Assembly: GCA_023474215.1 (NCBI GenBank)
Contig: JAMCYI010000001.1
Span: 2,836-66,835, forward strand
From: Patescibacteria group bacterium
Lineage (GTDB): Bacteria > Patescibacteriota > Minisyncoccia > UBA6257 > GWB1-50-10
Length of the DNA stretch: 64,000 nt
Direction of reading: 5' to 3'
Position 1 is the stretch's first letter. Each line of letters opens with the position of its first letter. Shown piece by piece: positions 51 through 24,740 of the stretch. The notes beneath the pieces are model-generated. The model searched no databases, was not told the DNA's origin, and saw nothing but the letters and a program-made list of their open reading frames with translations. Position numbers and translations under genes: made by a program.

Positions 51-605
51 GTGGAGGCGGAGAAGCTTCCGGGCGTCGCGGTCTCGATGCGTGAAGTCGA
101 AACGGAGAACGGCGAAAAGCGGCCATTCCTCTCGCTCGCCAACGGCAGGCTCAAGGGGTACGAGATGCTCGTCTCGGCCTCCGATTACGGCAACCGCCTC
201 GACGTCGGCTGGTATCTCGTCTTCGATTCTCCCTGGGCGCTCTTGAAGCGCCGAAGGGCGGCCGAGCAGCCGAAAAATCCGGAGAAGAGTCCCTCCATTT
301 CAGACTCGCTGATTTCGCTCGCGGGGCCGGGTGTGAAGATAGCTCAGGCGGTGGGGCGGGCGGGAGCCGCGTCGGCGGCGAAGGACAGAAAAGCGGATGA
401 AGAGGCGGCCTTCGCCATGGCGAGCGAAGGGCAGGGCTACCGCGATCCGGAAATGCTCACCATAGCCGAGAAGCGCGAGCTCCAGAATTACGTGGGCATC
501 GTGCACGGCATCCTGAAAAGCGAAGTGAAAGCGGCGATGGACGAACTCAAGCTCGATTTCTCCAAAGTGGACACAAAGTCGCAGGGATTCCTGAACGTCG
601 ACTGA
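51..605 (+). CDS. hypothetical protein (184 aa), first gene of 4-gene module; stop overlaps start of downstream ATPase (TGA 603-605 / ATG 607)
   Basis: ORF track; translational coupling with 607..1986; no recognisable motifs. Confidence 0.5.
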   Translation: MEAEKLPGVAVSMREVETENGEKRPFLSLANGRLKGYEMLVSASDYGNRLDVGWYLVFDSPWALLKRRRAAEQPKNPEKSPSISDSLISLAGPGVKIAQAVGRAGAASAAKDRKADEEAAFAMASEGQGYRDPEMLTIAEKRELQNYVGIVHGILKSEVKAAMDELKLDFSKVDTKSQGFLNVD

Positions 606-606
606 C

Positions 607-1986
607 ATGGACGAACCGCGCGTCTTCGGTGGCGAACCCTCGGAGGACATGCTCGCGCTCGGGTACGCCTGGGGCACGGACGAGAAGGGCGAGCTGTGGC
701 AGCTGAAAGCCGTCGCGCAGGAAGATCGCCTGCTCCATTTCCACGTGATCGGCGCTTCGGGCACTGGCAAGACGAAATTCCTAGAATACCTGATTGGGCA
801 GGACATCAAGAACGGATTCGGCTTCGGTGTGATCGATCCCCACGGCGACCTCATCAGGGACGTGAAAGAGTGGCTCGCCCTTGAGGATGGAGACCGCGGC
901 GAGCATGTTGTCCTCGTCGACCCCACCGACAAGAAGCGGACGGTCGCCTTCAATCCCCTCGAACTGGCTGACGGCACGGACGCGGCGCGGCAGGCACAGG
1001 AACTCGTCGTCGCCTTTAAAAAGATATACGAGGATTCGTGGGGGCAGCGGCTGGAAGGGATTTTGCGGAACACTTTGATCGCCCTCATCGAAAACCGCCT
1101 CACGCTCCTCGAACTACCCCTCTTCCTGAGGGACGCCGCGGTGCGCGCGAAGCTGCTCCGCAACGTGAAAAGCGAAACGTGCCGCGATTTCTTCGAAAAC
1201 GACTTCGAGAAATGGAGCGAGCGCACGAGGCCCGAATGGACCCAGTCGACGCTGAACAAGGTGGACGCGTTCCTCTCGGACAGCCGGATGCGGCAGATGT
1301 TCGCGCCGGCCAAGAGCTCGTTCAGCTTCAGGGATATCATGGACGGCAGGAAAATCCTGCTCGTGAACCTTTCTAAGGGAATCCTCGGCGAGGAGAGCAG
1401 CAAACTCCTGGGCTCCCTGCTCCTCGCGAAAATCCAGATGGCGGCCATGCAGCGGGCCGAAGTCAAGGAGGACGAACGGGTGCCTTTCTATTTATACATC
1501 GACGAGTTCCAGAACTTCGCCGAGGAGAGCTTCATGCGCATGCTGGACGAGACGAGAAAATACCGGCTCGCACTCACACTCGCCCACCAGCACCTGGAAC
1601 AGGTGTCGTTCAAACTCCGGCCGTCGCTCATGAACTGCGGGCTCCAGGCGTGCTTCCGCGTCGCCCCGGCGGACGCCGAGGTCCTCGCCAGAGGACTTTT
1701 CGCCGGATTGTACGCCAACATCAACGAGCGGGAGCAGTACGTCCAGCTCCTTCAATCGCTGGAGCCCCGCGCCTGCTTCGTGAGGAACAATGCAAGAGGC
1801 GGGATCATACAAATTTCCGTCCCTCCGCCTTTCAAGGGGCCGGAACGCGCCGGGCGGGAGGCGGACGATGACAGGATCGGCAGCCGCTACCTGCGGCGGC
1901 GCGAGGACATCGACAAGGAATACAGGGAAAGGCGCAGAACGCTCGTCGGTGGAGAGGACGAGGAGAATTTCTACGACTCTTTTTAA
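607..1986 (+). CDS. TrwB/TraD/VirD4-family (type IV coupling protein-like; FtsK/HerA superfamily) P-loop ATPase, soluble (no N-terminal TM)
   Basis: Walker A GASGTGKT followed by VIDPHGDL (cf. TrwB GATGTGKS...IVDPNGDM); Walker B YLYIDEFQNF; RKYRLALTLAHQ motif; paralog at 6804..8072. Confidence 0.7.
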   Translation: MDEPRVFGGEPSEDMLALGYAWGTDEKGELWQLKAVAQEDRLLHFHVIGASGTGKTKFLEYLIGQDIKNGFGFGVIDPHGDLIRDVKEWLALEDGDRGEHVVLVDPTDKKRTVAFNPLELADGTDAARQAQELVVAFKKIYEDSWGQRLEGILRNTLIALIENRLTLLELPLFLRDAAVRAKLLRNVKSETCRDFFENDFEKWSERTRPEWTQSTLNKVDAFLSDSRMRQMFAPAKSSFSFRDIMDGRKILLVNLSKGILGEESSKLLGSLLLAKIQMAAMQRAEVKEDERVPFYLYIDEFQNFAEESFMRMLDETRKYRLALTLAHQHLEQVSFKLRPSLMNCGLQACFRVAPADAEVLARGLFAGLYANINEREQYVQLLQSLEPRACFVRNNARGGIIQISVPPPFKGPERAGREADDDRIGSRYLRRREDIDKEYRERRRTLVGGEDEENFYDSF

Positions 1987-1989
1987 AAC

Positions 1990-2886
1990 ATGGGGATTGG
2001 TAAGGCGCATTTTATAAGGGAAGCCGAGGCGGCGCGCCGGAAGGCGCGCGAGGCGAAGGCGGAAGCCAAGACGGCGCGGCGGCAGTACGAGGAAACGGCC
2101 GCCGGACTCCAGCCGCGGATCGACGAACTGAGCCGCGAGGCGGACGAGCTGGCAGCGAAGTTTAAGCGGCTCTACGAAGAATCGCAGGAGCACTATGACG
2201 CGCGGGAAGGAGGCGCGGCGAAAGAATTAGCCGAGGAAGGCCACGAAGCGGAGGACCGTTGCCGTCGCCTGAACGCCGAAGCGAACGCTCTCCGGAGAGA
2301 GCTCAAGGGACTTTACGACAGATACGAAAACCTGAACAGGGAGGCGGCGCGGTTCGAGGAGGACGCCGAAACGGCCGAGGAGCAGGGGTGGCTCGTGCGG
2401 GAAACCGATGTGACGGGCTTCGGCGGGAGCGTCGCCAAGAGCAATTTCGCGGTCGAGGAATTCCTCGATACGTTCCCGCAGGGGTTGTTCCATAAGATAG
2501 AGCGCATCGAGTACCGCGCCGCGCACGAGGAGTACGAGAATGAAGGGGCGGAAGGGGTAACGAGCAGGCCGAACGAGTTCAGCCGCAAGAGGAAAATAAG
2601 AATATTCCCGCACGATGACGAGGCGCATTTCAAGAAAACCATAAGCCACGAAATAGGCCACGTCGCGTTTTACGAATTCCTGACATGGGAGGAAAAAGAC
2701 AGATGGGCGGCCCTGGCCAAAAAACTGGCGCTGGCCGGCAAGCGCATCAGTGGGTACGCTTGGAATTCCAACGAGCACTTCTGCGAATGTTTCTCCACGT
2801 TTAAAGTGGAGCCACAGGTACTAAAAAAATTCGACGAAGAGGTCTATACTTTTATGGAAGACACATTCAAATCATTGCCAAAATGA
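1990..2886 (+). CDS. coiled-coil protein with C-terminal zincin-like HExxH motif (putative metallopeptidase, SprT/WLM-like guess)
   Basis: N-terminal ~150 aa E/R/A-rich predicted coiled coil; SHEIGHVAFYEF HExxH motif with downstream NEHFCECF; ATG 4 nt after upstream stop. Confidence 0.5.
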   Translation: MGIGKAHFIREAEAARRKAREAKAEAKTARRQYEETAAGLQPRIDELSREADELAAKFKRLYEESQEHYDAREGGAAKELAEEGHEAEDRCRRLNAEANALRRELKGLYDRYENLNREAARFEEDAETAEEQGWLVRETDVTGFGGSVAKSNFAVEEFLDTFPQGLFHKIERIEYRAAHEEYENEGAEGVTSRPNEFSRKRKIRIFPHDDEAHFKKTISHEIGHVAFYEFLTWEEKDRWAALAKKLALAGKRISGYAWNSNEHFCECFSTFKVEPQVLKKFDEEVYTFMEDTFKSLPK

Positions 2887-3230
2887 AAAAACTGAAACTG
2901 TACGGGAAAAAAAGCGCATCGGACGAGATAGACCGCGAGAACGCCGTGGCGGTGATCTATGTTACCGGCAAGAAAGAGCTGATGGTTGAATCGGCGCATC
3001 CGGAGGTAAAGCGCGATATAGAAGAAGCCATTGTGGAGCTCATCAAAAAAGGCGGGCCGAAGGTAAGGCGGTGCGTTGAAAAAAATGGAGAAACAGTCAG
3101 AATCGCCACGCCACAGAAACTCGGCGATGCGGATTTTCTTGAAGCGCTGCGGGAAGAATATCCTTTCTGGTCAAGAGAGTTCAGCGGGTACGAGATAAAT
3201 CACTTGGTTTCAAGGGTGGCAGATGAATAG
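2883..3230 (+). CDS. hypothetical protein (115 aa), last gene of module (ATGA overlap with upstream gene)
   Basis: ORF track; 4-bp overlap coupling. Confidence 0.45.
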   Translation: MKKLKLYGKKSASDEIDRENAVAVIYVTGKKELMVESAHPEVKRDIEEAIVELIKKGGPKVRRCVEKNGETVRIATPQKLGDADFLEALREEYPFWSREFSGYEINHLVSRVADE

Positions 3231-3265: not shown

Positions 3266-4084
3266 TTACTGGCTCTTCGGCAGCACGACGTTCCCGAGGT
3301 CGATGTCGGCGTTGTCCATGGTGAACGACTTCTGCACCGTGCCGTAGCCGTCAGCCGAAAACTCGAACGTGTAGCTTCCGGCTGGAAATGATCCCAGACC
3401 GCCGTTTTGCAGAGCATTGGCCCAGAGAATGCCCATAGAACCGCAGAAGTCGCCGGCTCGCGAACTCGTTTTCAGGAACCACTCGTCCGAGATATTGCAG
3501 TTCACGGCACCCCACTTGATCCCGTCGAGCTTGGTGCCAACGGCGTTTACGACATTGACCCCGACACTGCCCCAGCGGGTGAAGACAATCTTTCCGAGAT
3601 CAATTCCTTGGGGCGGGAGATAAAATTTCTCCTCGACGGGGGTAAGCCCCGCAAGTCCTCCTTTCTCGGTATCGGGCACTTCCATCATGTACGTTCCGGG
3701 CGGGAGCGTCGTCGAAGGATCGCTCTCGCTCTTCGCCGTCATGGCGAGAACGCCGTCTTTTATCACGGCTCTCCCCGCATACTCGCCCAGAGAGTCGTAT
3801 ATCCGTACATCCGCGCCGTTATCCCACGGATCGGTGATGTCGTCATACGACTTGCCGTACTGGTCGACGACATACGCCGTGACCGTTCCCGGCTTGACCT
3901 GCGGAGCGACCACAGGTTTCGCGGCTGAGACGCTGCTTCCCGGTGCCGCCTGCTTCGGAACAATCGCGGATGGCTGGTTTCCGGCGGACTGGCTCGGGGC
4001 ACCGCTGAAGGGATGGGCGTAATAGACGGACGCGCCCGCGACCACCACGGCGACCGCTACGTAAAGAACTATTTTCGTTTTCAT
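3266..4084 (-). CDS. membrane-anchored/secreted hypothetical protein (272 aa)
   Basis: N-terminal hydrophobic helix MKTKIVLYVAVAVVVAGASVYY; G/S/T/P-rich extracellular region. Confidence 0.55.
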   Translation of the reverse strand: MKTKIVLYVAVAVVVAGASVYYAHPFSGAPSQSAGNQPSAIVPKQAAPGSSVSAAKPVVAPQVKPGTVTAYVVDQYGKSYDDITDPWDNGADVRIYDSLGEYAGRAVIKDGVLAMTAKSESDPSTTLPPGTYMMEVPDTEKGGLAGLTPVEEKFYLPPQGIDLGKIVFTRWGSVGVNVVNAVGTKLDGIKWGAVNCNISDEWFLKTSSRAGDFCGSMGILWANALQNGGLGSFPAGSYTFEFSADGYGTVQKSFTMDNADIDLGNVVLPKSQ

Positions 4085-4094
4085 ATATGTAGAA

Positions 4095-4505
4095 TTATTC
4101 CGACTTTTGCTTCTCCTCTTTCTCCTCCTCCTTTTTCGCCCTGTACGGAATCATAGCCGTGTTGATGCCCATCTTCGCCATCCTTCCCCCTCCGGAGAAA
4201 ATTAGGAAGACGAAGAGGTACTGGAGCAGGGCGTCGCCCAGCTTCTCGGCGTTTTGGCCGACGGCCGCGAGCAGTTCGACGCTGTTCGTCGCCCCGAAAC
4301 GGGCGCCGCTCTCCGTGGCTGCGCCCGGCGCGACGTTGATCTTCGCTTCGAGTATCGAGGGGATGTCGTTCCCGCGGAACACCTGATACCCGTACCAGAC
4401 GCCGAAGCCGACAACGACCGCTCCGGCCGCGATGAGGATCAGGCTCAAGATGGCGTAATATTTTTTCTCGTGTTTCATGTCATTGAGTGTTGCCGACGGT
4501 CTCAC
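4095..4505 (-). CDS. small membrane protein
   Basis: TM helix YYAILSLILIAAGAVVVGFGVWYGY; K/E-rich tail. Confidence 0.45.
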   Translation of the reverse strand: MRPSATLNDMKHEKKYYAILSLILIAAGAVVVGFGVWYGYQVFRGNDIPSILEAKINVAPGAATESGARFGATNSVELLAAVGQNAEKLGDALLQYLFVFLIFSGGGRMAKMGINTAMIPYRAKKEEEKEEKQKSE

Positions 4506-4683
4506 TGTTCAACTCCGAAAGGCACTTCTCGACTTCGCTCGCGGGAACGGTGAACGCGGCGTATGGCTTGTACTCCTTGAAAGCGCAGTCTTCGTAATTG
4601 GGCGCGGGAGCGCTTTTGAGAAAAAAGGCGACAGCGACGAGCGCAGCCACAGCTATCGCTATGAGCCAGATAAGGGATTTCAT
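4480..4683 (-). CDS. small secreted protein (67 aa, signal peptide)
   Basis: MKSLIWLIAIAVAALVAVAFF N-terminus; operon position. Confidence 0.35.
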   Translation of the reverse strand: MKSLIWLIAIAVAALVAVAFFLKSAPAPNYEDCAFKEYKPYAAFTVPASEVEKCLSELNSETVGNTQ

Positions 4684-4916
4684 GTTCTAGACTCCTCCTT
4701 TGTCCGCGCGAGCCGGTTGATCAGGAGGCACACCGCGAAGTACAGCCACAGGGCGTTCCAGAATATCGCGGGCGCTATGAATTTCCGCGGATTATCGGAC
4801 GACAGGAAAAAAATGAATACCCCAGCAATCAGAAAGACGGCGAACAGCACCCAGTACGTAATGTGACGCTTTTTGGAAAGCGGAACTCCGAAAACTAGAC
4901 GTAATACTTTGTTCAT
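4680..4916 (-). CDS. small membrane protein (2 TM)
   Basis: two hydrophobic helices; 4-bp overlap with downstream gene. Confidence 0.4.
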   Translation of the reverse strand: MNKVLRLVFGVPLSKKRHITYWVLFAVFLIAGVFIFFLSSDNPRKFIAPAIFWNALWLYFAVCLLINRLARTKEESRT

Positions 4917-5178
4917 GTGTTCCTAACAAATAAACCCGACCTTTTTCTCTGGCCGGGTTCGACAAACTGCTCTGTGTGAAAACACAAAGCTCCCAGCCAG
5001 TGATGCCTTGCGGCACCCATACAGGTTTCCCCGTATGACCAGTAACGGAGCTCTGACTAGGAGCTTTCTATTCGTTACTGGTTTTTTGAACCCTGCCGCA
5101 GGCTTCCCTACGGGTTAGGTCTCATGTTTAGTTGTATGGAGTCAATATTAACACACTGGACAAGGAGGGCAAGACAAC

Positions 5179-5385: not shown

Positions 5386-6594
5386 TTATGTCAATTGCTG
5401 GAATATGCGACCCATCCTAACGGGGACCACTGCCCCATTCCTCCAAACGCGAAGAGTTACGGGGATATTATTGTTTTTGCGTAGAACGTCGATTAGATAT
5501 TTAAGGGAAAAATGCTGCTCATCAATAATATCCTCATTCACCCCGACAATGACATCCCCTGCTCTAAGTCCGAATTTCTCAGCGATTGATCCAGGTACAA
5601 CGGCGGGGTTTTTCTTGTTGTCCTGGAGGAGCGCACCATGGTCAATTGGTAAATTTCGCTCATTGGCGATACCCGCTGTCAGTGGAATATAGTGTATCCC
5701 GAGCTGTCGCTGGTGCAAATACTCTCTCTTCATCTCTCTAATCGCTTTAGACACTTCGTTCTTAGCTAGCTGTTTCTCGTACTTAGCTATCATCTGTTCC
5801 TCATCATACCCGAACATCTTATAAAACAATTCTTTGCATCCAAGTTTTATCCCTTCCCAAAATCCGACTTCCCGATAATATCCCCGGTGGTGTAACCGAT
5901 CGCCTATCTGTTTGAGAGACGTTTCTAGACGGTCTATAGACTCATCAATTAGTTCTTCTGAACGGTAAAAGGCAGTCCGTTCGTCGTATTCAACGTAGAT
6001 TTCTCTTTGCCATATCGTCTTATAAAGTTCACCTCTAATATTTTGACTCAGGTAGGAGTATCTTATTCGAAACGCCAAATCCTCGAGATGTTGAGACGAT
6101 TCCAGCGTTCTCCGGCCTCTCGACAGCTCAAGATATTCTTTCTCATCATCCGTAAGGGGATATTTCTTACGGAACAGTCCGTCTATTGGTCTACCGAGAT
6201 ACTTATAGTAAGAGCTGCGAGAGTTACCGAGCATTTTTTCCAATGGCTCAACGTAGCGATCAAAAAGGGTGTCTTCCTTGTCAACGTCCTCTCTGGAATC
6301 GTCGTCAAAAAACTCGGAGAGGCTAAGGAGCAAATCCATGACAGGATTGATAATCTCCCTAATAGTCTCCTTCCTTACCTCGCCTTTTTCTTGTAAATCC
6401 GCTGCAGCAGATTCCAATAGTTTCTTGTGTGCTTCTCTTAACTGCTGGATACCAGCGTTGACGATTTCGCTGTCTTTCTGCAGGAGGCGAACTTCGATGT
6501 CTCTTTTGGCGTTTCTCCAAACTACAATAACGCCGAGTACGCCAGCGAAAAATGCGATTACTATGTTAACGAGTAGGTTGAGTAAAGAACCCAC
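5386..6594 (-). CDS. membrane-anchored protein with C-terminal PDZ domain (402 aa), low-GC gene
   Basis: N-terminal TM LLVNIVIAFFAGVLGVIVVW; C-terminal GDVIVGVNEDII...VTLRVWRNG PDZ-like; AT-rich codon usage vs neighbours. Confidence 0.6.
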   Translation of the reverse strand: MGSLLNLLVNIVIAFFAGVLGVIVVWRNAKRDIEVRLLQKDSEIVNAGIQQLREAHKKLLESAAADLQEKGEVRKETIREIINPVMDLLLSLSEFFDDDSREDVDKEDTLFDRYVEPLEKMLGNSRSSYYKYLGRPIDGLFRKKYPLTDDEKEYLELSRGRRTLESSQHLEDLAFRIRYSYLSQNIRGELYKTIWQREIYVEYDERTAFYRSEELIDESIDRLETSLKQIGDRLHHRGYYREVGFWEGIKLGCKELFYKMFGYDEEQMIAKYEKQLAKNEVSKAIREMKREYLHQRQLGIHYIPLTAGIANERNLPIDHGALLQDNKKNPAVVPGSIAEKFGLRAGDVIVGVNEDIIDEQHFSLKYLIDVLRKNNNIPVTLRVWRNGAVVPVRMGRIFQQLT

Positions 6595-6803: not shown

Positions 6804-8072
6804 TTGGAAATCCTCTCCATCGGCAAAGCCGCCTCCCGCTCAGGAAGCGTCGAGTTCGGCATCAAATCTCCCGACCGGCGGCACCACATGTACCTCGTGG
6901 GCCAGACCGGCACCGGCAAGTCCACCTTCCTCAAGAATGCGGCGGTTCAAGACTTGCGGGCTGGGCGCGGCCTTGCGGTAATCGATCCTCATGGCGCGCT
7001 TGTCGAGGACATCCTGCGGTTCATTCCCAGGCGCCGGACGGGCGAGGTCGCGTATTTCAATCCGACTGACGCCGATCATCCCGTCGGCCTTAATATCCTC
7101 GAGGCGAGGAGCGAGAACGAGCGGAACCTGGTCGCCTCGTCCCTCATCTCGATTTTCAAATATCTCTGGAAGGACTTCTGGGGTCCTCGGCTGGAGCATG
7201 TTTTCCACAATGCAATCCTCGCCCTAATGGACACGCCGGATTCGACGCTCCTCAGCGTGTACCGGATGCTTGCCGACGACGCCTTCCGCGCGAAGGTCGT
7301 CGGGAGGGCGAAGGACCCGGTCGTGAGGTTCTTCTGGGAAGAGGATTTCGAGAAATATCCGGCGCGGTTCAAGAAGGAAGTGACGTCGCCGATCCAGAAC
7401 AAGATCGGGCAGCTCCTCACGAACAGCTGCATTCGGAACATCGTCGGGCAAGCCGAGAGCACGCTCGACCTGCGGTTCCTGATGGACAACCAGAGGATTC
7501 TCTTTGTAAATCTCGCCAAAGGCGTGATCGGCGAGGATAAGGCAAACCTCCTAGGATCGGTGCTCGTGACGAAACTGTACCTCGCGGCGCTCGAGAGGCA
7601 GACAGTGCCGGAGGACAAGCGCCGGGATTTCTACCTTTATATCGACGAATTCCAGAATTTTTCGACGGAAGCGTTTCCGTCGATGTTGTCCGAATCCCGC
7701 AAGTACCGGCTGAACCTGATTCTGGCGCACCAGTATCTCCGCCAGCTCCCGGAGAGCGTGCGCCACGCCGTCTTCGGGAACGTCGGGACGCTCTCCGCCT
7801 TCCGCGTCGGCGGGCTCGACGCAGAGGAGCTGGCCAAGGAATTCCAGCCGGACTTCGAGCGGGACGATCTCACCCATATCGAGAACTACCGCTTCTGCAC
7901 AAGGCTCATGATCGACGGCAAGCGGTCAAAGCCGTTCTCGGCTGAAACGCTCCCGCCTCCCCGCCTGCGGGGCGACGAGGCGGACGCCGAGACGGTCATA
8001 AGGATTTCTCAAGAGCGTTTTGCTTCAAAACGTGAAGACGTGGAACAAGCGGTCGAAAAATGGTTCGCCTGA
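6804..8072 (+). CDS. TrwB/TraD/VirD4-family P-loop ATPase, paralog of 607..1986 (apparent TTG start)
   Basis: GQTGTGKST...VIDPHGAL, YLYIDEFQNF, RKYRLNLILAHQ; roughly 40% identity to first copy by eye. Confidence 0.7.
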   Translation: MEILSIGKAASRSGSVEFGIKSPDRRHHMYLVGQTGTGKSTFLKNAAVQDLRAGRGLAVIDPHGALVEDILRFIPRRRTGEVAYFNPTDADHPVGLNILEARSENERNLVASSLISIFKYLWKDFWGPRLEHVFHNAILALMDTPDSTLLSVYRMLADDAFRAKVVGRAKDPVVRFFWEEDFEKYPARFKKEVTSPIQNKIGQLLTNSCIRNIVGQAESTLDLRFLMDNQRILFVNLAKGVIGEDKANLLGSVLVTKLYLAALERQTVPEDKRRDFYLYIDEFQNFSTEAFPSMLSESRKYRLNLILAHQYLRQLPESVRHAVFGNVGTLSAFRVGGLDAEELAKEFQPDFERDDLTHIENYRFCTRLMIDGKRSKPFSAETLPPPRLRGDEADAETVIRISQERFASKREDVEQAVEKWFA

Positions 8073-8418
8073 GGCGAATCCGTTTTTCGCGTCGCGATCT
8101 CGGCTGCGCGGCCTCGAGCTTTTTATTTTGCCTTCCCCCCACCGCGCGCAGCGAAAAGAGAAAAGCTCCGGCGAAGGAGAGCGGAGGCCCGAGGATGCCC
8201 CGAGCCCGAAGCGGAAGCGAGGGGTGAAGGGGCAATGAGGACATGTTGTCGGGGGCCGGAGCCGCAAGAACGGAGAGAAAATATTCCGTCGTTTGCGGGC
8301 GGATCCGCCTTCCGGAGGCAGTCGTTCCGGAACGACCCCTTGAACGACCCCTTTGCGAATCAGAAATTTCTGGTAAAATAGGTTCTGATACCGGCGCGTA
8401 AACTCACTAAACCAAAGG

Positions 8419-8446
8419 CCGGTGACTCTTGTCACCGGTTTTTGGT
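8419..8446 (+). terminator. rho-independent terminator ccggtgac-tctt-gtcaccgg + TTTTT
   Basis: perfect 8-bp GC stem and T-run; flanked by direct ggttctgat. Confidence 0.7.
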
Positions 8447-8632
8447 TCTGATGTTTTCAAGGAGAGGATAAGAACCTTTGAAAGGGGGTCGGGGAAGAGC
8501 GGAAGCGCTTCCCCGTGGAGGAATGAGTCCGCGAAAGCGGACGGACTCAAAACCGAGGGTTTTGAGGGAGCGAAGCGACAGGTTCCATATCCTTCCCTGC
8601 ACACACTTTGAAAAATCGGCCTTCTAAAACTC

Positions 8633-8660
8633 GACCAGCTCACTGCTGGTCTTGTTTTTT
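8633..8660 (+). terminator. terminator gaccagc-tcact-gctggtc + cTTGTTTTTT (overlaps copy 1 of 35-bp direct repeat)
   Basis: 7-bp stem + T-run. Confidence 0.6.
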
Positions 8661-8673
8661 GAAGATTCGAGCC
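8639..8673 (+). repeat. 35-bp exact direct repeat copy 1 (ctcactgctggtcttgttttttgaagattcgagcc)
   Basis: identical to 10314..10348. Confidence 0.9.
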
Positions 8674-9070
8674 AGGTCGACATTCAACCATAACCCTAGG
8701 CGATAAGAGCACTTCTAGGTGGTATAATAACAATGACTCAGGGGGGGTCAGTTTTGTTTATCGCGAAAACAAGATAGCTATGAAGTTACCAAAGAGGGTA
8801 GATGTAAAAAATTCAAAAGGTCGATATTATATTCTAACCTAACTCTCTTTTCACTACCATAAAGTGGGGGGGCGGCTAAGGTAAACATTATGAGTAAAGA
8901 AAACCCTCGAACGGAGCGGGAAAAGAAAAGAGCCCGTGAGGAAAAACAAATAAAAAAGACGGGGGACAAATTAAAGGCAAAGCGTCTCCAGCGGCATCAG
9001 CATCCGCTACCGCCACATTAAAGGTGTACATTGAAGAAATAAAAGCCGGATTAACTTGTTAACAAGTCAT

Positions 9071-9616
9071 ATGAGAAAAAAGATTGTTGTCGGCGCAATA
9101 ATTTTGGTGGCGATAGTCATAGCGTACATCGGTGTCAGAGTAGCGTATAACCAGTATGAATGGAATCATAGTAAAGCTACGATAGCTAGTCCTGCCGTAG
9201 TAAACCCAACTCTTACAGGTAGCGTTACCACTGTTGGAAACGGCATAAGCATTACAGCTGATGCCGTGCAATCATCCGGTGTTATTAGTCAGACTTCTGC
9301 TGGAGATAATTCCGTGCTCAACTTAGTCGGTCCGGCGTTAGTGAAAATAACGGTAAACACTTCAGGTAGTAACTGCGCACTGGCTAATGCGTTGGGCGGG
9401 AGCTTCATGTATGGTCAATTCAAAACGCCAATTAGCGGATCTGCCGAAAAAACAGTCAGTTTTCCAGCGGATGGGATAATGTTCATGAGCGGCGTGTGTA
9501 TGGATTCCAGCGGCAATCCTATTGGTTTACCCAATAGTTTGATCGTGGAAACCGTCTCTAAAGGTGAGACGTTGGATAACCACGGCGCTCTTCAGACGGT
9601 TAACATGCCATGGTGA
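9071..9616 (+). CDS. membrane-anchored extracellular protein, paralog A
   Basis: N-terminal TM KKIVVGAIILVAIVIAYIG; shares VQSSGVI / CMDSSGNP motifs with 9703..10296. Confidence 0.55.
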   Translation: MRKKIVVGAIILVAIVIAYIGVRVAYNQYEWNHSKATIASPAVVNPTLTGSVTTVGNGISITADAVQSSGVISQTSAGDNSVLNLVGPALVKITVNTSGSNCALANALGGSFMYGQFKTPISGSAEKTVSFPADGIMFMSGVCMDSSGNPIGLPNSLIVETVSKGETLDNHGALQTVNMPW

Positions 9617-9702
9617 ACACTGCCGAAATGTAAGGGTTTGCTCTAATTTTATCCTTCCCTTCCTACGGCACATTATCATTACCCCATACAAATAATTAGA
9701 TC

Positions 9703-10296
9703 ATGAACGAAAAACCGAGAAAGAAAATATGGAGACATTGGTGGTTCTGGACGTTGATAGCGGTTTGTATAATGGCCTTGGCGGTCGCAGTGGTGCGCCT
9801 GCGCAACCAGAACAAGGTGCATTTGCCCAGTGGTCTTCCACAGAAACCTGTCAGTATGCCGTTTACTGGTACGTATGCCGCCTCGTCAACCGGCTATGCC
9901 AGCATATCACTGAGTGTTTTACAGTCATCCGGCATCATCAAAGCCGGAAGTTATAACGGTAAGGTGGGTACGCCCATCGGAGTATCTGCGGAAATAATGG
10001 GGCCAGCCGAACTTGATGTGAGAATCGATTCGATGTCCCAGGTTTGTATAATCTCGCATTCACTAGATATTACAACCGGGAGGGGCACATCATTAACCCA
10101 TGCGGTTGAGGTAACGCTCAACGTGCCCCCAGGCGGATTCATTAACTACTACGTCTTGTGCAAGGATTCGAACGGCAGCTACCAACTTTCTGAGTTAACG
10201 GTTAATGTATGGAATCCTGCCACGTACGGTACGGAGGCGATGTCCAAAGAGGCATTGACGCAAATTAACCTACCTGGCCTTAACAGCGTTCCTTAA
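9703..10296 (+). CDS. membrane-anchored extracellular protein, paralog B
   Basis: N-terminal TM WWFWTLIAVCIMALAVAVV; LQSSGII, CKDSNGS motifs. Confidence 0.55.
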   Translation: MNEKPRKKIWRHWWFWTLIAVCIMALAVAVVRLRNQNKVHLPSGLPQKPVSMPFTGTYAASSTGYASISLSVLQSSGIIKAGSYNGKVGTPIGVSAEIMGPAELDVRIDSMSQVCIISHSLDITTGRGTSLTHAVEVTLNVPPGGFINYYVLCKDSNGSYQLSELTVNVWNPATYGTEAMSKEALTQINLPGLNSVP

Positions 10297-10313
10297 GGGC
10301 ACTAATATAAAGG

Positions 10314-10348
10314 CTCACTGCTGGTCTTGTTTTTTGAAGATTCGAGCC
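10314..10348 (+). repeat. 35-bp exact direct repeat copy 2
   Basis: identical to 8639..8673. Confidence 0.9.
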
Positions 10349-10508
10349 GGCAATTTTCGGCAATAGGGGAGAGAAGCCACTTTTTGGCGATGGCGAGCGA
10401 TTTCTCTTTTTGAATACTTAGCTTTTCACCCTCCGCCAAAAAGTTCGAGCCGAAACTGAATCTACACCTTGAAAGTCGCCTCAGTAGAGTATCTATCACT
10501 CATATTTA

Positions 10509-11024
10509 CTAGATATCGTCTTGCCCAATTCCCATTTCTTTTCTCATTTCTTTTTTGACGTCTGCTAAGGCGGCCAGTAATTTCGTAATATGTTCTTCCT
10601 TTTGCAAACCAGAAAGACCTTGAGATTTTCCGACTAATTGAGCAAAGACCCTCGCTTTTTCTTCTAGCTCTTCTTCACCAAATAAGTTGATGGGGGACAT
10701 TGCGTTGCGAGTTTCTTCGCTATCTTTATCTCTAGCCTCTTTCATTTCCTTGGCAAGCGTCTCAAGTTGTTCTTGGGAAAAATTAGAGGTATCTATTTCT
10801 TCTTCAATCTGGATATCCCTAATGGTCTTGATGAAGTGAGAAAGAGCGTTTACGTAGGCCGTCTTCTTCGCGTCGAAAAGCCTCTGCTTCCTTTGCTCTT
10901 CTTTCTGAAATTTGATTTGGATTTGCAGGCGTCTCTCCTCGGATTTGGTTTGTCTACTTGTTGCCCATGCGGCGATGATGCCTCCAGATATGGTCCCCAA
11001 GAGAGTGAAAATTGCTATAAGCAT
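10509..11024 (-). CDS. membrane-anchored coiled-coil protein (171 aa)
   Basis: N-terminal TM then K/E/Q-rich helical region. Confidence 0.45.
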   Translation of the reverse strand: MLIAIFTLLGTISGGIIAAWATSRQTKSEERRLQIQIKFQKEEQRKQRLFDAKKTAYVNALSHFIKTIRDIQIEEEIDTSNFSQEQLETLAKEMKEARDKDSEETRNAMSPINLFGEEELEEKARVFAQLVGKSQGLSGLQKEEHITKLLAALADVKKEMRKEMGIGQDDI

Positions 11025-11118
11025 ACCTTTTATCTCATTAATTCTCCGACTTTTAGTCGTGCCTGGAAGAGGGCACGGGATATGCTGTTATCTTAACATT
11101 TTTAGCTATAATGATGGC

Positions 11119-11703
11119 ATGGATCCACTTGAGTTTTTAAAGAGTAGGGTTAAAGAAGGGTCAGAGGAACAGCTTAATAATGTAATTGCTAAGGGTGTAT
11201 TGAAACTGGGCGACGAGCAGATTGCCACGGTCGCATTCGTTTTTTGGCTGGTCTATATGGCCGAAACTGAATTAAACGCCGCTACGAGCCAGTCGTGGGC
11301 CATCGTGGAGAAGTTCGCCCCTCAAGGTGTAAAAGAGATGGTAGCGGACAGGGTGCAAAAATTAGCAGGAGGACGCAAAAAGTTAGATCTCAAAAATCTT
11401 GAGTATTTCTCAGATAAGATTAGGGTCTACGAGGCACTACTCGGAGACAACAAACTAAAGAGACTTCTATGGAAATTGAACGATATAAGAAACGACCTGA
11501 GCCACAATCGCGTTAGCAATCTTAGCTACGATGGTGAGTCACTCTCATTAAGGAGCACCAAGGAAAAAATTTTGATTGATTATTTTGACGCTGTTTTGAA
11601 TAGCGATGTCACTACATCGGACACCTGGAACTCTCTTAGCGAAGATAACAAAAAGGTGGTGAAGTCGATTGCGCGAGAGGTCAAAAAACAGGGCCTCAGT
11701 TAA
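11119..11703 (+). CDS. hypothetical protein with HEPN-like R-N-x3-H motif (KLNDIRNDLSHNR)
   Basis: RNDLSH fits HEPN Rx4-6H with polar residue after R; TATAAT at 11106-11111; low-GC island. Confidence 0.4.
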   Translation: MDPLEFLKSRVKEGSEEQLNNVIAKGVLKLGDEQIATVAFVFWLVYMAETELNAATSQSWAIVEKFAPQGVKEMVADRVQKLAGGRKKLDLKNLEYFSDKIRVYEALLGDNKLKRLLWKLNDIRNDLSHNRVSNLSYDGESLSLRSTKEKILIDYFDAVLNSDVTTSDTWNSLSEDNKKVVKSIAREVKKQGLS

Positions 11704-12311
11704 ATCGGCATTATTCTAGCTCCGCGCCGGGCGAATTCTTTGGATATCCTTTCCAAACCATCTAGGTCAGCTTGCGTTGCAACACTGGCATCCTTGAATA
11801 CATCTGCATGCATAAGGGTAAAGCCATCTATAAAAAGCTTGATTAGTGTGTCGGGAGATATGAACGCAACAGTATGGCCGAGTTTTTTAAATTTCTCATC
11901 CCAGTCCCTTATAACGTCCGTGCTTTCGGAACCGTTAGGCATATTTATGGAAACTCCATTTTCTGGCTCTGGCAAACCGAATGCGTGGACGATTGCACAA
12001 CGGAATTTATACAAAAACTTTTCGTTGACCAGTTTAAGATAAGGGTGGGTTTTATAGGTCGCATTGCTTTCGATAACGCAATATTTTTTCATCCACTCTT
12101 CCAAGAGAGGACGGCCGCCCAGACTGCGGTTATAGAAAGCGTTGTATAAGTTACTGGCGATTTCCAAAAACGAAAATGCTACTAACGCCCTCACCCTAAC
12201 GAACTGCTGATCTTTTCTGAGAACTCCAATTGCGCCGGATATCTCCTCAACCATTTCCCCTAGTCTATCATCGACATCTTTTTTCACCTCCTCGTATCTC
12301 TTGATATCCAT
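11700..12311 (-). CDS. hypothetical protein (203 aa) convergent with and overlapping the HEPN-like gene by 4 bp
   Basis: ORF track; no recognised motif. Confidence 0.45.
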   Translation of the reverse strand: MDIKRYEEVKKDVDDRLGEMVEEISGAIGVLRKDQQFVRVRALVAFSFLEIASNLYNAFYNRSLGGRPLLEEWMKKYCVIESNATYKTHPYLKLVNEKFLYKFRCAIVHAFGLPEPENGVSINMPNGSESTDVIRDWDEKFKKLGHTVAFISPDTLIKLFIDGFTLMHADVFKDASVATQADLDGLERISKEFARRGARIMPI

Positions 12312-12549
12312 GTTGTATGTTTTTAATTCTAAACCACCTCGTAGCTAGAGGGTAGTGGGAAATCCTCCTGCCCGTGCGCGGGAGTGGCGGGGCAGAGGCA
12401 GAACCGCGCGGAGAATGAACCATGATGTGCTAAGGAGGGAAAAATGGCGGAAGGGAAATTTTCTCCCGCCTTATCTTGTGCGCATCTTTCTCTTAAGATA
12501 ATTTCATAACGCTCCCCGTACTGAATTCGGATGTGTTAGAATATATGCA

Positions 12550-12951
12550 ATGAGCGAGGGGGAGAAAATCATAAATTGGCTAGAGAGAAATTGGTTTAGA
12601 TTAGGTGTACTTCTAATTCTGATTGCGATCGGAGCCGCTATTGTCTATTACATTGCAATCTTCTTACCGGACAGGCAATCTCAACTGGATCAGGAGAAGA
12701 AGGATGCTGTTATAGCCAACACGGTGTCCAGAAATAAATGCCTAGCTAATGCGGCGAGTGATTATCGAGACCTTTTAAAAGAGAACACCTACAGTGATGG
12801 AACCTTCAAGAGTACAAACGCTGAGCAGTATGTAGAAAATAAGTATACAGATGAGAAAGACGAATGTTTCAAGGAATACCCAATTAACGCGGATATCCAA
12901 TTGCCCTACGCGGACCCAACGAACATCTTCTATAATTTGCTTAACAAATAG
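12550..12951 (+). CDS. small membrane-anchored protein
   Basis: TM WFRLGVLLILIAIGAAIVYYIAIFL. Confidence 0.5.
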   Translation: MSEGEKIINWLERNWFRLGVLLILIAIGAAIVYYIAIFLPDRQSQLDQEKKDAVIANTVSRNKCLANAASDYRDLLKENTYSDGTFKSTNAEQYVENKYTDEKDECFKEYPINADIQLPYADPTNIFYNLLNK

Positions 12952-13331
12952 ATAAATCTATTTTACAACGCTCTCGGAATGCTTTTTGAATTGCCTGCGA
13001 TACATGAAAAAGGTTCTAACGTCCTCGACTACCGCGCACATTAAACCCCCCGACCCCCGTCTGGGACACCCCCGGGTTTCTCATCAGCCGCACTTTGTGC
13101 GGCTCCTTCCAACACGGGGATTTAATTCTTCCTTCTGCTTTGCAGAAGGATTCTCGTTTTTGGAAGAGAGGATTCGAACAGGGAAGGGGTCGGGAAACCG
13201 GGAGGTTTCCCGTCGCGAAGCTCACGTCAACGCTCGGGTTCGTGGGAGCGAGTTGCTACAGAGCAACTCGCGACGTTTGACTCCTCTCCTGGGCACAAAG
13301 ATTTCATCAAATATCTGCTATAATCCAGATT

Positions 13332-13877
13332 ATGGAATATCTGGATGTCTTGGATGCTCGGGGCAACCCAACCGGACAAAAAAAGACCAAAGCGGAAATT
13401 CACGAAGCCGGGGACTGGCACAAAGCAGTCCATGTTTGGATTGTAAACTCCAAGGGAGAATTGCTAATTCAAAGACGTTCGCCGGAAAAGGACAGCCATC
13501 CCAATATGTGGGATATTTCCGGTGCGGGACATGTTTCATTCGGAGAAGCACCTATCACATCCGCGTTAAGGGAGGTTGAGGAAGAGTTGGGTATATCCTT
13601 CCCGAAGGAAAAATTCGAGCATCTTTTCGGCTTAACCCAGCAATCAATCCAAAAAAACGGCGCCTGGAAGAACAACGAATTCAACGACGTTTACCTGATC
13701 GAAGCGGACTTAGACGTCAATACCCTCAAACTCCAAGAGGAAGAGGTTGCTGAAGTGAAATTCATTCCCTACAAAGAACTCGAGAAAGAAATTTCTTCCG
13801 GAAACGATAAATACGTTCCTCATCCAGAAGAATACCGGCGACTTTTCGAGGAGCTTCATAGAAGATATGCAAACTAA
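13332..13877 (+). CDS. Nudix hydrolase
   Basis: Nudix box GHVSFGEAPITSALREVEEELGI. Confidence 0.85.
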   Translation: MEYLDVLDARGNPTGQKKTKAEIHEAGDWHKAVHVWIVNSKGELLIQRRSPEKDSHPNMWDISGAGHVSFGEAPITSALREVEEELGISFPKEKFEHLFGLTQQSIQKNGAWKNNEFNDVYLIEADLDVNTLKLQEEEVAEVKFIPYKELEKEISSGNDKYVPHPEEYRRLFEELHRRYAN

Positions 13878-14430
13878 GTTCATACTCCACGGCGGATTCA
13901 CCCCCAAGACAGTACAAGAAGATGATGTTTTCTTCAAGGAAATATTGAAGGATGCGCCGCAAAACCCGAAGGTCCTTTTGGTCTACTTCGCCAAAGAAGA
14001 GGACCGCGTGGCGAAAAACCGAGAAGAAGATATCGCTCAATTCGAGAAAAACAGCGGAGACAAAACAATCTCGTTTGAAATCGCAAATGAAAAAGAATTT
14101 TCCGATCAAATTGCCCGGTCGGACGTCATTTATCTCCATGGCGGAAGATCGGTAAAAATACTCGAAACGCTCTCGAAATTCCAAAACCTGGGACAGCTTT
14201 TCAAGGGGAAAACGATCGCAGGCGATTCAGCGGGAGCAAACGTCCTTTCGGTATGCTTCTACAGCCGAGCCAGTGATGGAATATTTGAAGGGCTCGGAAT
14301 TCTGCCAATAAAACTTATCCCTCATTACTCGGAAGATCAAAACGAAAAACTCCAGGAACTCAAAAAACGCCATCCAGATATGGAGACGGTGATACTCTCC
14401 GAATATCAAACAAGGATCTTTTATTTGTAA
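13867..14430 (+). CDS. peptidase S51 (PepE/cyanophycinase-like) family protein
   Basis: HGGRS...IAGDSAGANV catalytic Ser motif. Confidence 0.6.
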   Translation: MQTKFILHGGFTPKTVQEDDVFFKEILKDAPQNPKVLLVYFAKEEDRVAKNREEDIAQFEKNSGDKTISFEIANEKEFSDQIARSDVIYLHGGRSVKILETLSKFQNLGQLFKGKTIAGDSAGANVLSVCFYSRASDGIFEGLGILPIKLIPHYSEDQNEKLQELKKRHPDMETVILSEYQTRIFYL

Positions 14431-24079: not shown

Positions 24080-24216
24080 TGAGGGTTGATTTGGTATTTG
24101 ACATTTGAGCTTCGACATTATAGTATTGAATTGTTCCGTAGATAGCAGGGGCCGCAAGGCTTAATCATCCTGCCGAGGAAGAAACTTCTGGGAAGTCGGT
24201 CGATTCTTCTTGAAAA

Positions 24217-24238
24217 CTGCGGAAACGCAGATTTTTTG
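24217..24238 (+). promoter_or_regulatory. rplJ leader hairpin ctgcg-gaaa-cgcag + TTTTTTG (attenuator/L10-leader-like)
   Basis: GNRA hairpin + T-run 5 nt upstream of rplJ ATG. Confidence 0.5.
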
Positions 24239-24242
24239 TTAT

Positions 24243-24740
24243 ATGAAAACAAAAGCGCAAAAAAAGGAACAAATCGAAACGGGAAAAGGGGAACTCGATA
24301 AAAGCGAAACCGTCGTCTTCACCGATTTCACCGGCCTCTCGGCGAATGATTTGAACGTGTTTCGAAAACTCGTCCGGGGACTCGGGGGCGTCATGGTCGT
24401 CATGAAAAAGCGGCTCTTGACCCTCGCGCTGAAAGAGAAAGGCATCGACTTCGATGCAAAAAAACTCGAAGGCCAAGTCGGCGTCGTGTTTTCGCCGAAA
24501 GATTCGGTCGAGACCGCAAACGTCGTCTATCAATTCGGCAAACCGTTCAGAGCAAAAAATATCTTCAATATTTTGGGCGGCTTCGAGGTCAAAGGGAAGC
24601 GGTTCATGGAAAAAGCGGAAGTCGAAACGCTCGGTCAGCTTCCGTCACGCGAAGTCCTCCTGGGACAGCTTGCGTTCATGCTCACCGTTCCGATCAAGAA
24701 AGTTCTTTTCGTTTTGAACGAAAAGGCAAAACAACAATAA
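24243..24740 (+). CDS. rplJ: 50S ribosomal protein L10
   Basis: [32 protein letters not shown]. Confidence 0.9.

Follow-up and report, generated by a model that had tools for sequence, protein, structure and literature searches.

Does a small patescibacterial protein that carries an HExxH motif and is encoded next to a DNA-translocase-like ATPase belong to the proteases acting on DNA-protein crosslinks, or to another group of metallopeptidases? This question is raised by a gene at 1990..2886 (+) in a stretch of 64,000 nucleotides (nt) from a Patescibacteria group bacterium (GenBank assembly GCA_023474215.1, contig JAMCYI010000001.1, positions 2,836 to 66,835 of the forward strand), which is referred to as the window in the following. 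The gene starts with an ATG and codes for a product of 298 amino acids (aa). The identical public protein (P0001) is named 'putative nuclear RNA export factor SDE5' by NCBI, and an earlier note, made from the letters of the sequence, had described the product as a charged coiled coil fused to a zincin of the SprT, Wss1 or ImmA type. The analysis presented here established the fold and the catalytic motif of the zincin domain, its fusion to a DUF1771 hairpin, an invariable partner gene, the mobile-element context and a recurrent, though not universal, linkage to ATPases resembling coupling proteins.

The zincin domain and its catalytic residues

The C-terminal domain comprises aa 138-298 (2401..2883, +) and was modelled by AlphaFold2 with a pLDDT of 89.9. 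A three-stranded sheet, an active-site helix (211-230) and a Glu helix (260-273) characterize it as an ATLF-fold gluzincin domain. The zincin core recognized in the earlier note was confirmed, with the stretch HEIGHVAFYEF at aa 220-230 and the stretch NEHFCECF at aa 261-268. Judged from the alignments, H220 and H224 of the HEIGH motif (2647..2661, +) would bind zinc together with E262, and E221 would be the general base. Y256, which is encoded together with E262-H-F-C-E266-C-F268 in 2755..2793 (+), probably stabilises the transition state. All of H220, E221, H224, E262 and E266 are kept in three full-length homologues.

When 1.84 billion representative proteins were searched with a profile of aa 134-298 built from two sequences, 241 representative clusters matched at E<=1e-3. 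Of the matched representatives, 134 were examined and scanned against Pfam. The HExxH motif is intact in 131 of these 134 family members, and E262, which follows 38 residues after H224, is present in 127. The relatives share the motif HE[IVL]GH, a spacing of about 38 residues and SxYA-x5-EDF[AC]E[CSA][FY]. Their Pfam matches comprise ATLF (53 members, best E 6e-14), Peptidase_Mx (50), Peptidase_Mx1 (41), M90 (MtfA; 14) and SprT-like (10). The fusion of DUF1771 to the zincin domain was found in 47 of the 134 representatives, with a median length of 305 aa, and since HExxH and the Glu are both kept in 44 of these 47, catalysis seems to be usually selected.

Furthermore, a profile of 43 sequences was compared with the PDB and matched the ATLF-like proteins PPEP-3, PPEP-1/Zmp1 and lethal factor (LF) at E values of 1.8e-4 to 1.3e-3. 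The alignment spans the HExxH motif, the Glu helix and the C-terminus, and it pairs the NEHFCECF stretch with 'EEFFAESFA' of PPEP-1. The predicted fold is also similar to solved ATLF/M34-like members. In the fold comparison, LF domain 1 reached a figure of 10.5, followed by MtfA (10.0), Certhrax, PPEP-3 and PPEP-2 (9.7 each), the N-domain of Edema factor (9.0), the LF catalytic domain (8.9) and Peptidase_Mx 4l7a (8.0). The next fold class reached at most 5.4, with 4.7 for the ImmA-like CapP and 4.4-4.5 for Wss1. Both the domain model and the profile matches to PPEP-3, PPEP-1 and LF thus bear out the supposed structural similarity to zincins, and they place the domain, as far as relatives and model allow, among the gluzincins of the LF/PPEP/MtfA type (ATLF fold).

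The attribution to the SprT/Wss1/ImmA type was not supported, as the predicted third ligand is a Glu (E262), F230 occupies the position of the corresponding His, and neither Wss1 nor SprT is among the nearest folds. The NEHFCECF stretch to which the earlier note drew attention is the Glu-ligand helix, equivalent to 'EFFAEAF' of LF.

The LF catalytic domain and PPEP-1/2/3 (MEROPS M34; Pfam ATLF, PF07737) have in common with the window protein the HExxH motif and, some 40 residues further on, an E-x-F-A-E-x-F helix that provides a Glu. In LF and the PPEPs a Tyr lies about 6-7 residues before the Glu helix, and Y256 of the window protein has this spacing, although the position varies among its relatives. 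The catalytic Tyr, which precedes the ligand Glu by about 7 residues, is Y728 in LF and Y178 in PPEP-1, and by alignment Y256 presumably corresponds to LF Y728, E262 to LF E735 and E266 to LF E739. Relatives of the window protein match the ATLF hidden Markov model (HMM), whereas the window protein itself stays below the threshold. LF and the PPEPs are secreted, whereas the window protein has no signal peptide in a hydropathy scan. Moreover, they have neither a DUF1771 hairpin nor an obligate downstream partner, and their identity to the window protein is 14-19%. MtfA (Mlc titration factor A, M90) works through a specific protein partner. Unlike the window protein it has no coiled-coil domain, it is encoded on the chromosome and regulates sugar-uptake control, and Mlc is not encoded adjacently.

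The other 87 relatives are mostly single-domain proteins of about 190-210 aa, the genes of which lie in unremarkable chromosomal surroundings and lack the partner. A few relatives are giant polyvalent-like proteins, e.g., P0097 (2013 aa) with two copies of the zincin domain. In P0097, the copies are divided by repeated 'SRPWWEREVAxNP..GGEFTS' linkers, which resemble sites at which a polyvalent protein could process itself. The family also occurs in Mu-F-fused phage proteins, with weak structural echoes. Catalytically dead fused representatives, which have lost the HExxH motif, are P0004, P0023 and P0126. In P0004 (locus L009, 5386-6234) the motif is changed to SMIGG and E262 to G. The partner gene persists beside the dead members, and L009 also retains a Replic_Relax gene and both ATPases.

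The N-terminal hairpin and the partner gene

The N-terminal part (aa 1-137; 1990..2400, +) was identified as an antiparallel two-helix hairpin by AlphaFold2 and by a match to Pfam DUF1771. In aa 1-133, 44% of the residues are charged (E 27, R 18, K 8, D 6) and 20% are Ala; E, R, A and K together make up 59%. The charged coiled-coil region claimed before was found, not as a generic coiled coil but as two long helices in the model (5-70 and 74-137, pLDDT >90), which form an antiparallel hairpin with an estimated length, from the helix lengths, of about 95 Å. Pfam DUF1771 (PF08590) matches aa 48-99 (nt 2131-2286) with 30.2 bits, compared to a gathering threshold of 28.7, and was found in 48 family members in the scan of the 134 representatives (best E 9.3e-12). 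The 47 fused representatives carry a near-invariant signature close to the hairpin tip, which consists of A51, F58, A77, L80, G84, C91 and N95.

C91 lies in helix 2 (nt 2260-2262) and is Cys in 46 of the 47 fused representatives. A 'cysteine switch' or disulfide between C91 and C265 was considered and rejected, as C265 is Cys in merely 20 of the 47 and no covariation was found. Foldseek searches with the hairpin returned generic hairpin coiled coils alone (SMC, p85 iSH2, PspA), none of them significant (E>0.3), and matches to tropomyosin, SMC, MukB, JetC and PspA were dismissed as generic coiled-coil noise. A signal of the WXG100/LXG type of type VII secretion systems at the N-terminus was also unsupported (TIGR03930, E 0.033, 14 bits compared to a cut-off of 45).

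In the literature searched, DUF1771 is mentioned solely as the neighbour domain of eukaryotic Smr nucleases. The name SDE5 is therefore an annotation artefact, a mis-annotation caused by the DUF1771 match. The eukaryotic DUF1771-Smr proteins (N4BP2, Cue2/Ypl199c, NONU-1, SDE5) belong to the same Pfam family and likewise carry the domain directly N-terminal of a hydrolase domain. However, the predicted enzyme described here is a zincin peptidase and not an Smr nuclease, its host is bacterial, and the bacterial version of DUF1771 has the near-invariant C91, unlike the eukaryotic proteins. No Smr match was found by Pfam in the zincin protein or in its scanned relatives.

The zincin gene is directly followed by a gene for a partner of 115 aa (2883..3230, +), the start of which overlaps the zincin stop in the sequence ATGA. 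A directly downstream gene of 106-146 aa, usually overlapping, was found in all 18 distinct loci with fused homologues. These are the window (with L006 and L007), L001 (with L002-L004), L005, L008-L013, the contig of P0005, L016-L020, L021 (with L022 and L023), L024 and L026. The homology of the partner holds for the loci besides the P0005 contig, which contributes a downstream gene call of 129 aa alone. The 18 loci include Ca. Brennerbacteria (L026) and a high-GC contig. The partners share LKLYG, A, V, [DE]xxFLEA, FW and FGGYEI in that order. For the window's partner no match was found in Pfam, the PDB or PADLOC, and it bears no DNA-binding or regulator signature. A two-piece profile match to archaeal L18 (6skf_BQ, E 0.018) suggested a mimic of ribosomal protein uL18; this idea was rejected, as none of nine partners examined gave an L18 signal in Pfam and the hhalign probability against a bacterial L18 sequence was 0.1%. 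Zincin and partner form an obligate, translationally coupled two-gene module.

Tandem partner paralogues were identified in L016 (1587-2335) and L024 (414-1236). In L018 (2195-2456) a decayed second copy consists of the C-terminal tip of the zincin and a truncated partner. In L021-L023 an ORF of 412 aa on the opposite strand splits the halves of the zincin gene (L021, 1190-4241) and is possibly an insertion. Turnover of this kind is typical for conflict cassettes.

In addition, identities were compared by part among three close relatives. The hairpin is 67-81% identical, the two neighbouring ATPases 69-70% (ATPase1) and 76-77% (ATPase2), the zincin domain 43-56% and the partner 52-63%. The zincin domain and the partner are thus the fastest-evolving parts of the cluster. 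This pattern of divergence is read as a signature of an arms race, in favour of a conflict module.

The fold, the catalytic type and the presence of zincins on conjugative elements are already known. In contrast, the literature searched contains no description of the DUF1771-zincin architecture, the partner family or a patescibacterial operon setting with an ATPase resembling a type IV coupling protein (T4CP). A DUF1771 hairpin fused to an ATLF zincin is an undescribed bacterial architecture, and with its invariable partner it makes up a concrete two-protein system.

ATPases and the mobile-element context

The module lies at the end of a closely spaced operon, in which a gene for an N-terminal-domain protein, ATPase1, the zincin gene and the partner gene follow each other. 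The stop codon of ATPase1 precedes the zincin ATG by 3 nt. ATPase1 (607..1986, +; 459 aa) is a soluble TrwB/VirD4-like P-loop ATPase, assigned by Pfam and by the motifs GASGTGKT and YIDEFQNF. It matches TrwB_AAD_bind with 45.6 bits (cut-off 20.5), T4SS-DNA_transf with 29.2 bits (above the cut-off) and DUF87. The VirD4-like NCBIfam model conju_CD1115 gave an E value of 1e-10, with 41 bits not reaching its cut-off of 250. A second TrwB-like paralogue, ATPase2 (6804..8072, +; 422 aa), is about 37-41% identical to ATPase1, and its plasmid homologues are annotated as 'type IV secretion system DNA-binding domain-containing protein'.

Upstream of ATPase1, at 51..605 (+), the window contains the C-terminal 184 aa of the N-terminal-domain protein, which has 257 aa in contig L006 and is anchored by a transmembrane (TM) helix. 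The helix is found at the N-terminus of this separate protein (L006) and of a fused orthologue of 664 aa, and the N-terminal-domain protein together with ATPase1 resembles a membrane-anchored coupling protein. The two parts are fused (664 aa) in L001 (2933-4927) and L005, and are split in L006 (1837-3991), L009 (6899-8990) and L013 (5536-8387). A stop-codon reassignment or sequencing error was rejected as cause of the split, as the junction reads TGAcATG, the frames differ and the split recurs in independent assemblies. Because of the change of frame, the recurrence in independent contigs and the separate genes in L009 and L013, the split is a natural fission. The N-terminal-domain proteins end in a conserved tail, ..LDFSKVDTKS[QR]GFLN[VI].

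Both ATPases also match the PADLOC model mad8 (ATPase1 2.8e-13, ATPase2 2e-11), the DndH and HerA models, and phrog_5156 of PHROG (7e-46 and 3.5e-61). Homologues were found on plasmids of Bacillus, Streptomyces, Staphylococcus and haloarchaea and in large Bacillus phages. Owing to these matches and this wide spread, the label 'T4CP' is a superfamily assignment only.

The coupling to a DNA-translocase-like ATPase described before was confirmed, with a neighbour of the TrwB/VirD4/HerA superfamily that recurs in 6 of the 18 loci in shuffled order. Homologues of ATPase1 or ATPase2 lie near the zincin in the window, L001, L005, L009, L011 and L013, which are spread over at least 3 clades in a neighbour-joining tree of the zincins. 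In L001 and L005 a fused N-terminal domain-ATPase1 gene is followed by zincin and partner. In L009 the order is Replic_Relax, zincin, partner, a further gene, N-terminal domain, ATPase1 and ATPase2, and in L013 the pair lies between both halves (N-terminal domain, zincin, partner, ATPase1). The pairing had been called unusual, but it is less so, as zincins are the commonest domain of the 'polyvalent' proteins of conjugative elements and phages; ArdC and TraC1 carry one (PMC5512222).

Across the loci, the neighbours comprise Replic_Relax (adjoining the module in L001 and L009), a serine recombinase, type I and type II restriction-modification systems, DUF932 and a pair of a helix-turn-helix (HTH) gene and an M78 gene. 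These neighbours are typical of mobile elements, and the module is carried by elements of the integrative or conjugative type, mainly in Patescibacteria. Over the 4 kb at the start of the window, where the zincin operon is located, the G+C content is 0.57-0.61 compared to about 0.50 elsewhere. This contrast is in keeping with an integrated element that extends leftwards out of the window. The remaining window carries housekeeping genes of a patescibacterial chromosome (gyrB, L10, mraW, PBP, murE, secA, lepA, uvrABC). Searches of plasmid and phage replicons with the zincin protein gave no tblastn match in PLSDB or INPHARED and none in IMG/VR. An IMG/VR contig bearing an ATPase2 homologue is without the zincin module, and the Sulfitobacter plasmid with the best ATPase2 homologue has no related cluster.

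Downstream of the partner, a small membrane-protein operon on the minus strand (3266..4916, -) encodes proteins of 272, 136/127, 67 and 78 aa with TM-like segments, the last three of which are conserved in the nearest elements (homologues in L001 and L005). A LOOT RNA (Rfam RF03000) was identified at 5002..5121 (-) with 88.6 bits (gathering score 46.4). It lies in the 5' leader of this operon in three related elements, also at 8383-8497 (-) in L001 and 5540-5663 (-) in L005, with scores of 81-89 bits over the three. A further gene (5386..6594, -) codes for a protein of 402 aa that starts with a TM helix and carries a PDZ domain in its C-terminal part (PDZ_6 at 1.7e-8). No homologue of it was found in the related loci, and the window's element alone has it.

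The region 8000-14000, which separates ATPase2 from the first housekeeping genes, has a low G+C content (0.44-0.48) and solely ORFs without a family match, and probably belongs to the same island as cargo. It contains a perfect 36-nt direct repeat (8638-8673 and 10313-10348) with a terminator-like hairpin in each copy. The repeats flank two paralogous TM-protein genes (9056-9616 and 9703-10296), and the encoded proteins show weak similarity to a protein of 318 aa from the L001 element. At 12162-12183 and 13144-13165 the region also has an inverted repeat of 22 nt, which is imperfect. Finally, a ribosomal protein L10 leader (RF00557, 66 bits) at 24118-24246 (+) is located upstream of rplJ and is ordinary.

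Possible functions of the module

The explanation we favour, with somewhat better than even confidence, is a cytoplasmic zinc endopeptidase of the LF/PPEP/MtfA type which, with its hairpin and obligate partner, serves as a conflict effector or toxin with an inhibitor or immunity partner. With its specificity for certain sequences, the protease would act in conflict between element and host or between cells. The partner would be its cognate binding protein and would most likely restrain it in the producing cell, as an inhibitor or immunity factor. The hairpin may be a docking or oligomerisation module and, beside the ATPases, may present the protease to a coupling ATPase. We infer a conflict module because the gene order is that of toxin followed by immunity gene with translational coupling, because partners are duplicated, cassettes decay and the zincin domain and the partner co-diverge fast, and because there is a precedent, as LF-like zincins form the hub domain among the polyvalent proteins that conjugative elements and phages deliver, with ArdC and TraC1 transferred in conjugation (PMC5512222).

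The metallopeptidase (MPTase) domains of ArdC, TraC1 and P1 DdrB are also LF-like zincins of mobile elements, encoded near transfer genes; it has been proposed that they act early as effectors or that they are autoprocessing enzymes (Iyer et al. 2017, PMC5512222). Compared to the polyvalent proteins, the window protein is small and two-domain, has no ArdC-N or other effector domains, and has a DUF1771 N-terminus, a dedicated partner and an occurrence mainly in Patescibacteria.

Several observations weigh against the conflict reading. The window protein itself reaches no Pfam zincin threshold (best M78, E 0.047) and has no match to PF07737 (ATLF) even at E<=10; being below threshold on its own, it owes its domain assignment to its relatives, the profile and the predicted fold. 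Peptidase activity, zinc binding and partner binding are predictions from sequence. The position of Y256 is Tyr in 20 of the 47 fused members compared to 72 of the 87 others; the Tyr is present in the window protein and is F or A in its two nearest relatives. A simple hydropathy scan of the product found neither a TM segment nor a signal-like or hydrophobic N-terminal segment. The partner was not found in orphan immunity arrays away from the zincin, and the catalytically dead P0004, which keeps partner and ATPases, is awkward for a pure toxin-immunity reading. No ATPase lies within the available flanks of 12 of the 18 loci, so export or coupling is no general requirement. VirB4 and channel genes are absent from the window, in which the larger ORFs scanned are housekeeping genes. 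Their absence agrees with the rarity of virB4 beside patescibacterial VirD4, as just 148 of 5,713 VirD4 homologues lie near virB4 (PMC12102498).

A bolder form of the same idea, which we regard as doubtful, would be an uncharacterised coupling-ATPase-dependent effector-immunity system. In it, orphan VirD4-like ATPases would export the protease or load it onto transferred DNA via the hairpin, and eukaryotic DUF1771 would descend from an adaptor of bacterial conflict systems.

Were the ATPases unrelated neighbours, the pair could be a self-contained intracellular module of the toxin-antitoxin or abortive-infection type, which stabilises the element or defends the host. We consider this rather unlikely: the invariable coupled pair in 18/18 loci, the islands with restriction-modification systems and an Xre-HTH/M78 pair, the occurrence of the module alone in some chromosomal-looking contexts and the lack of a secretion signal in the hydropathy scan would fit, but an ATPase linkage that recurs, in rearranged order, across at least 3 clades is hard to credit to chance, PADLOC gave nothing beyond coiled-coil noise for zincin and partner, a conserved hairpin of 137 aa would be needless for a simple toxin, and catalytically dead variants persist. 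The dead P0004 with its retained partner would fit a minimal DNA-transfer apparatus, in which the zincin, docked on the VirD4/TrwB-like ATPases by the hairpin, is a processing or assembly protease. In this case the partner would act as substrate or adaptor, and cleavage could affect the TM N-terminal-domain protein, the Replic_Relax protein or the partner itself. The compact operon of the window, the position of the pair between N-terminal-domain gene and ATPase1 in L013, the adjoining Replic_Relax in L001 and L009 and the autoprocessing proposed for polyvalent-protein zincins (PMC5512222) point in this direction. However, most loci (L008, L012, L016-L026) have no ATPase or relaxase nearby, the catalytic domain and the partner evolve faster than the machinery, and the tandem paralogues of the partner and the decayed copies are more readily explained by a conflict module than by an assembly factor, so that this role appears unlikely.

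Persisting dead members with a partner, the invariability of the partner, the relaxed Tyr of the fused subfamily and the Peptidase_M90 matches of 14 relatives would also suit an MtfA-like regulator, in which the zincin chiefly binds and titrates the partner or a repressor and peptidase activity is secondary or dispensable. As the retention of HExxH and Glu in 44 of the 47 fused members speaks for catalysis being usually selected, and the partner has no DNA-binding or regulator signature, such a regulator is quite improbable. We give hardly any credit to a SprT/Wss1(WLM)/Spartan-like DNA-protein-crosslink protease or an ImmA-type regulatory protease acting with a DNA translocase, as implied by the earlier note. 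SprT, Wss1 and Spartan have in common with the window protein a minimal HExxH core and a weak, sub-threshold HMM similarity around the motif. The sub-threshold Pfam matches comprise SprT-like (E 0.005 in the relative P0003, 17.1 bits compared to a cut-off of 25.6), DUF2268 (0.02, in relatives) and M78 (0.04-0.05), whereas the window protein itself gave no SprT-like or WLM match; SprT-like is matched in 10 of the 134, and a DNA-translocase-like ATPase is adjacent. However, the third ligand is a His in those proteases and, by prediction, a Glu in an LF-type helix here, with F230 at the last position of HExxHx5H. ATLF, Peptidase_Mx and M90 dominate the Pfam matches of the family, and a DNA-binding module was not detected, which also speaks against the crosslink-protease function proposed before.

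The conflict module with an LF-type protease therefore remains the explanation preferred here, and it bears on the annotation of the family: the public name 'nuclear RNA export factor SDE5' is corrected to a lethal-factor-type metallopeptidase. The fusion provides a second enzymatic context for DUF1771 and may help to work out the role of this domain. Patescibacteria encode thousands of VirD4-like ATPases which are unlinked to VirB4 machinery (PMC12102498), and a protease module that recurs in operons of VirD4-like ATPases is a candidate client or cofactor of such orphan ATPases.

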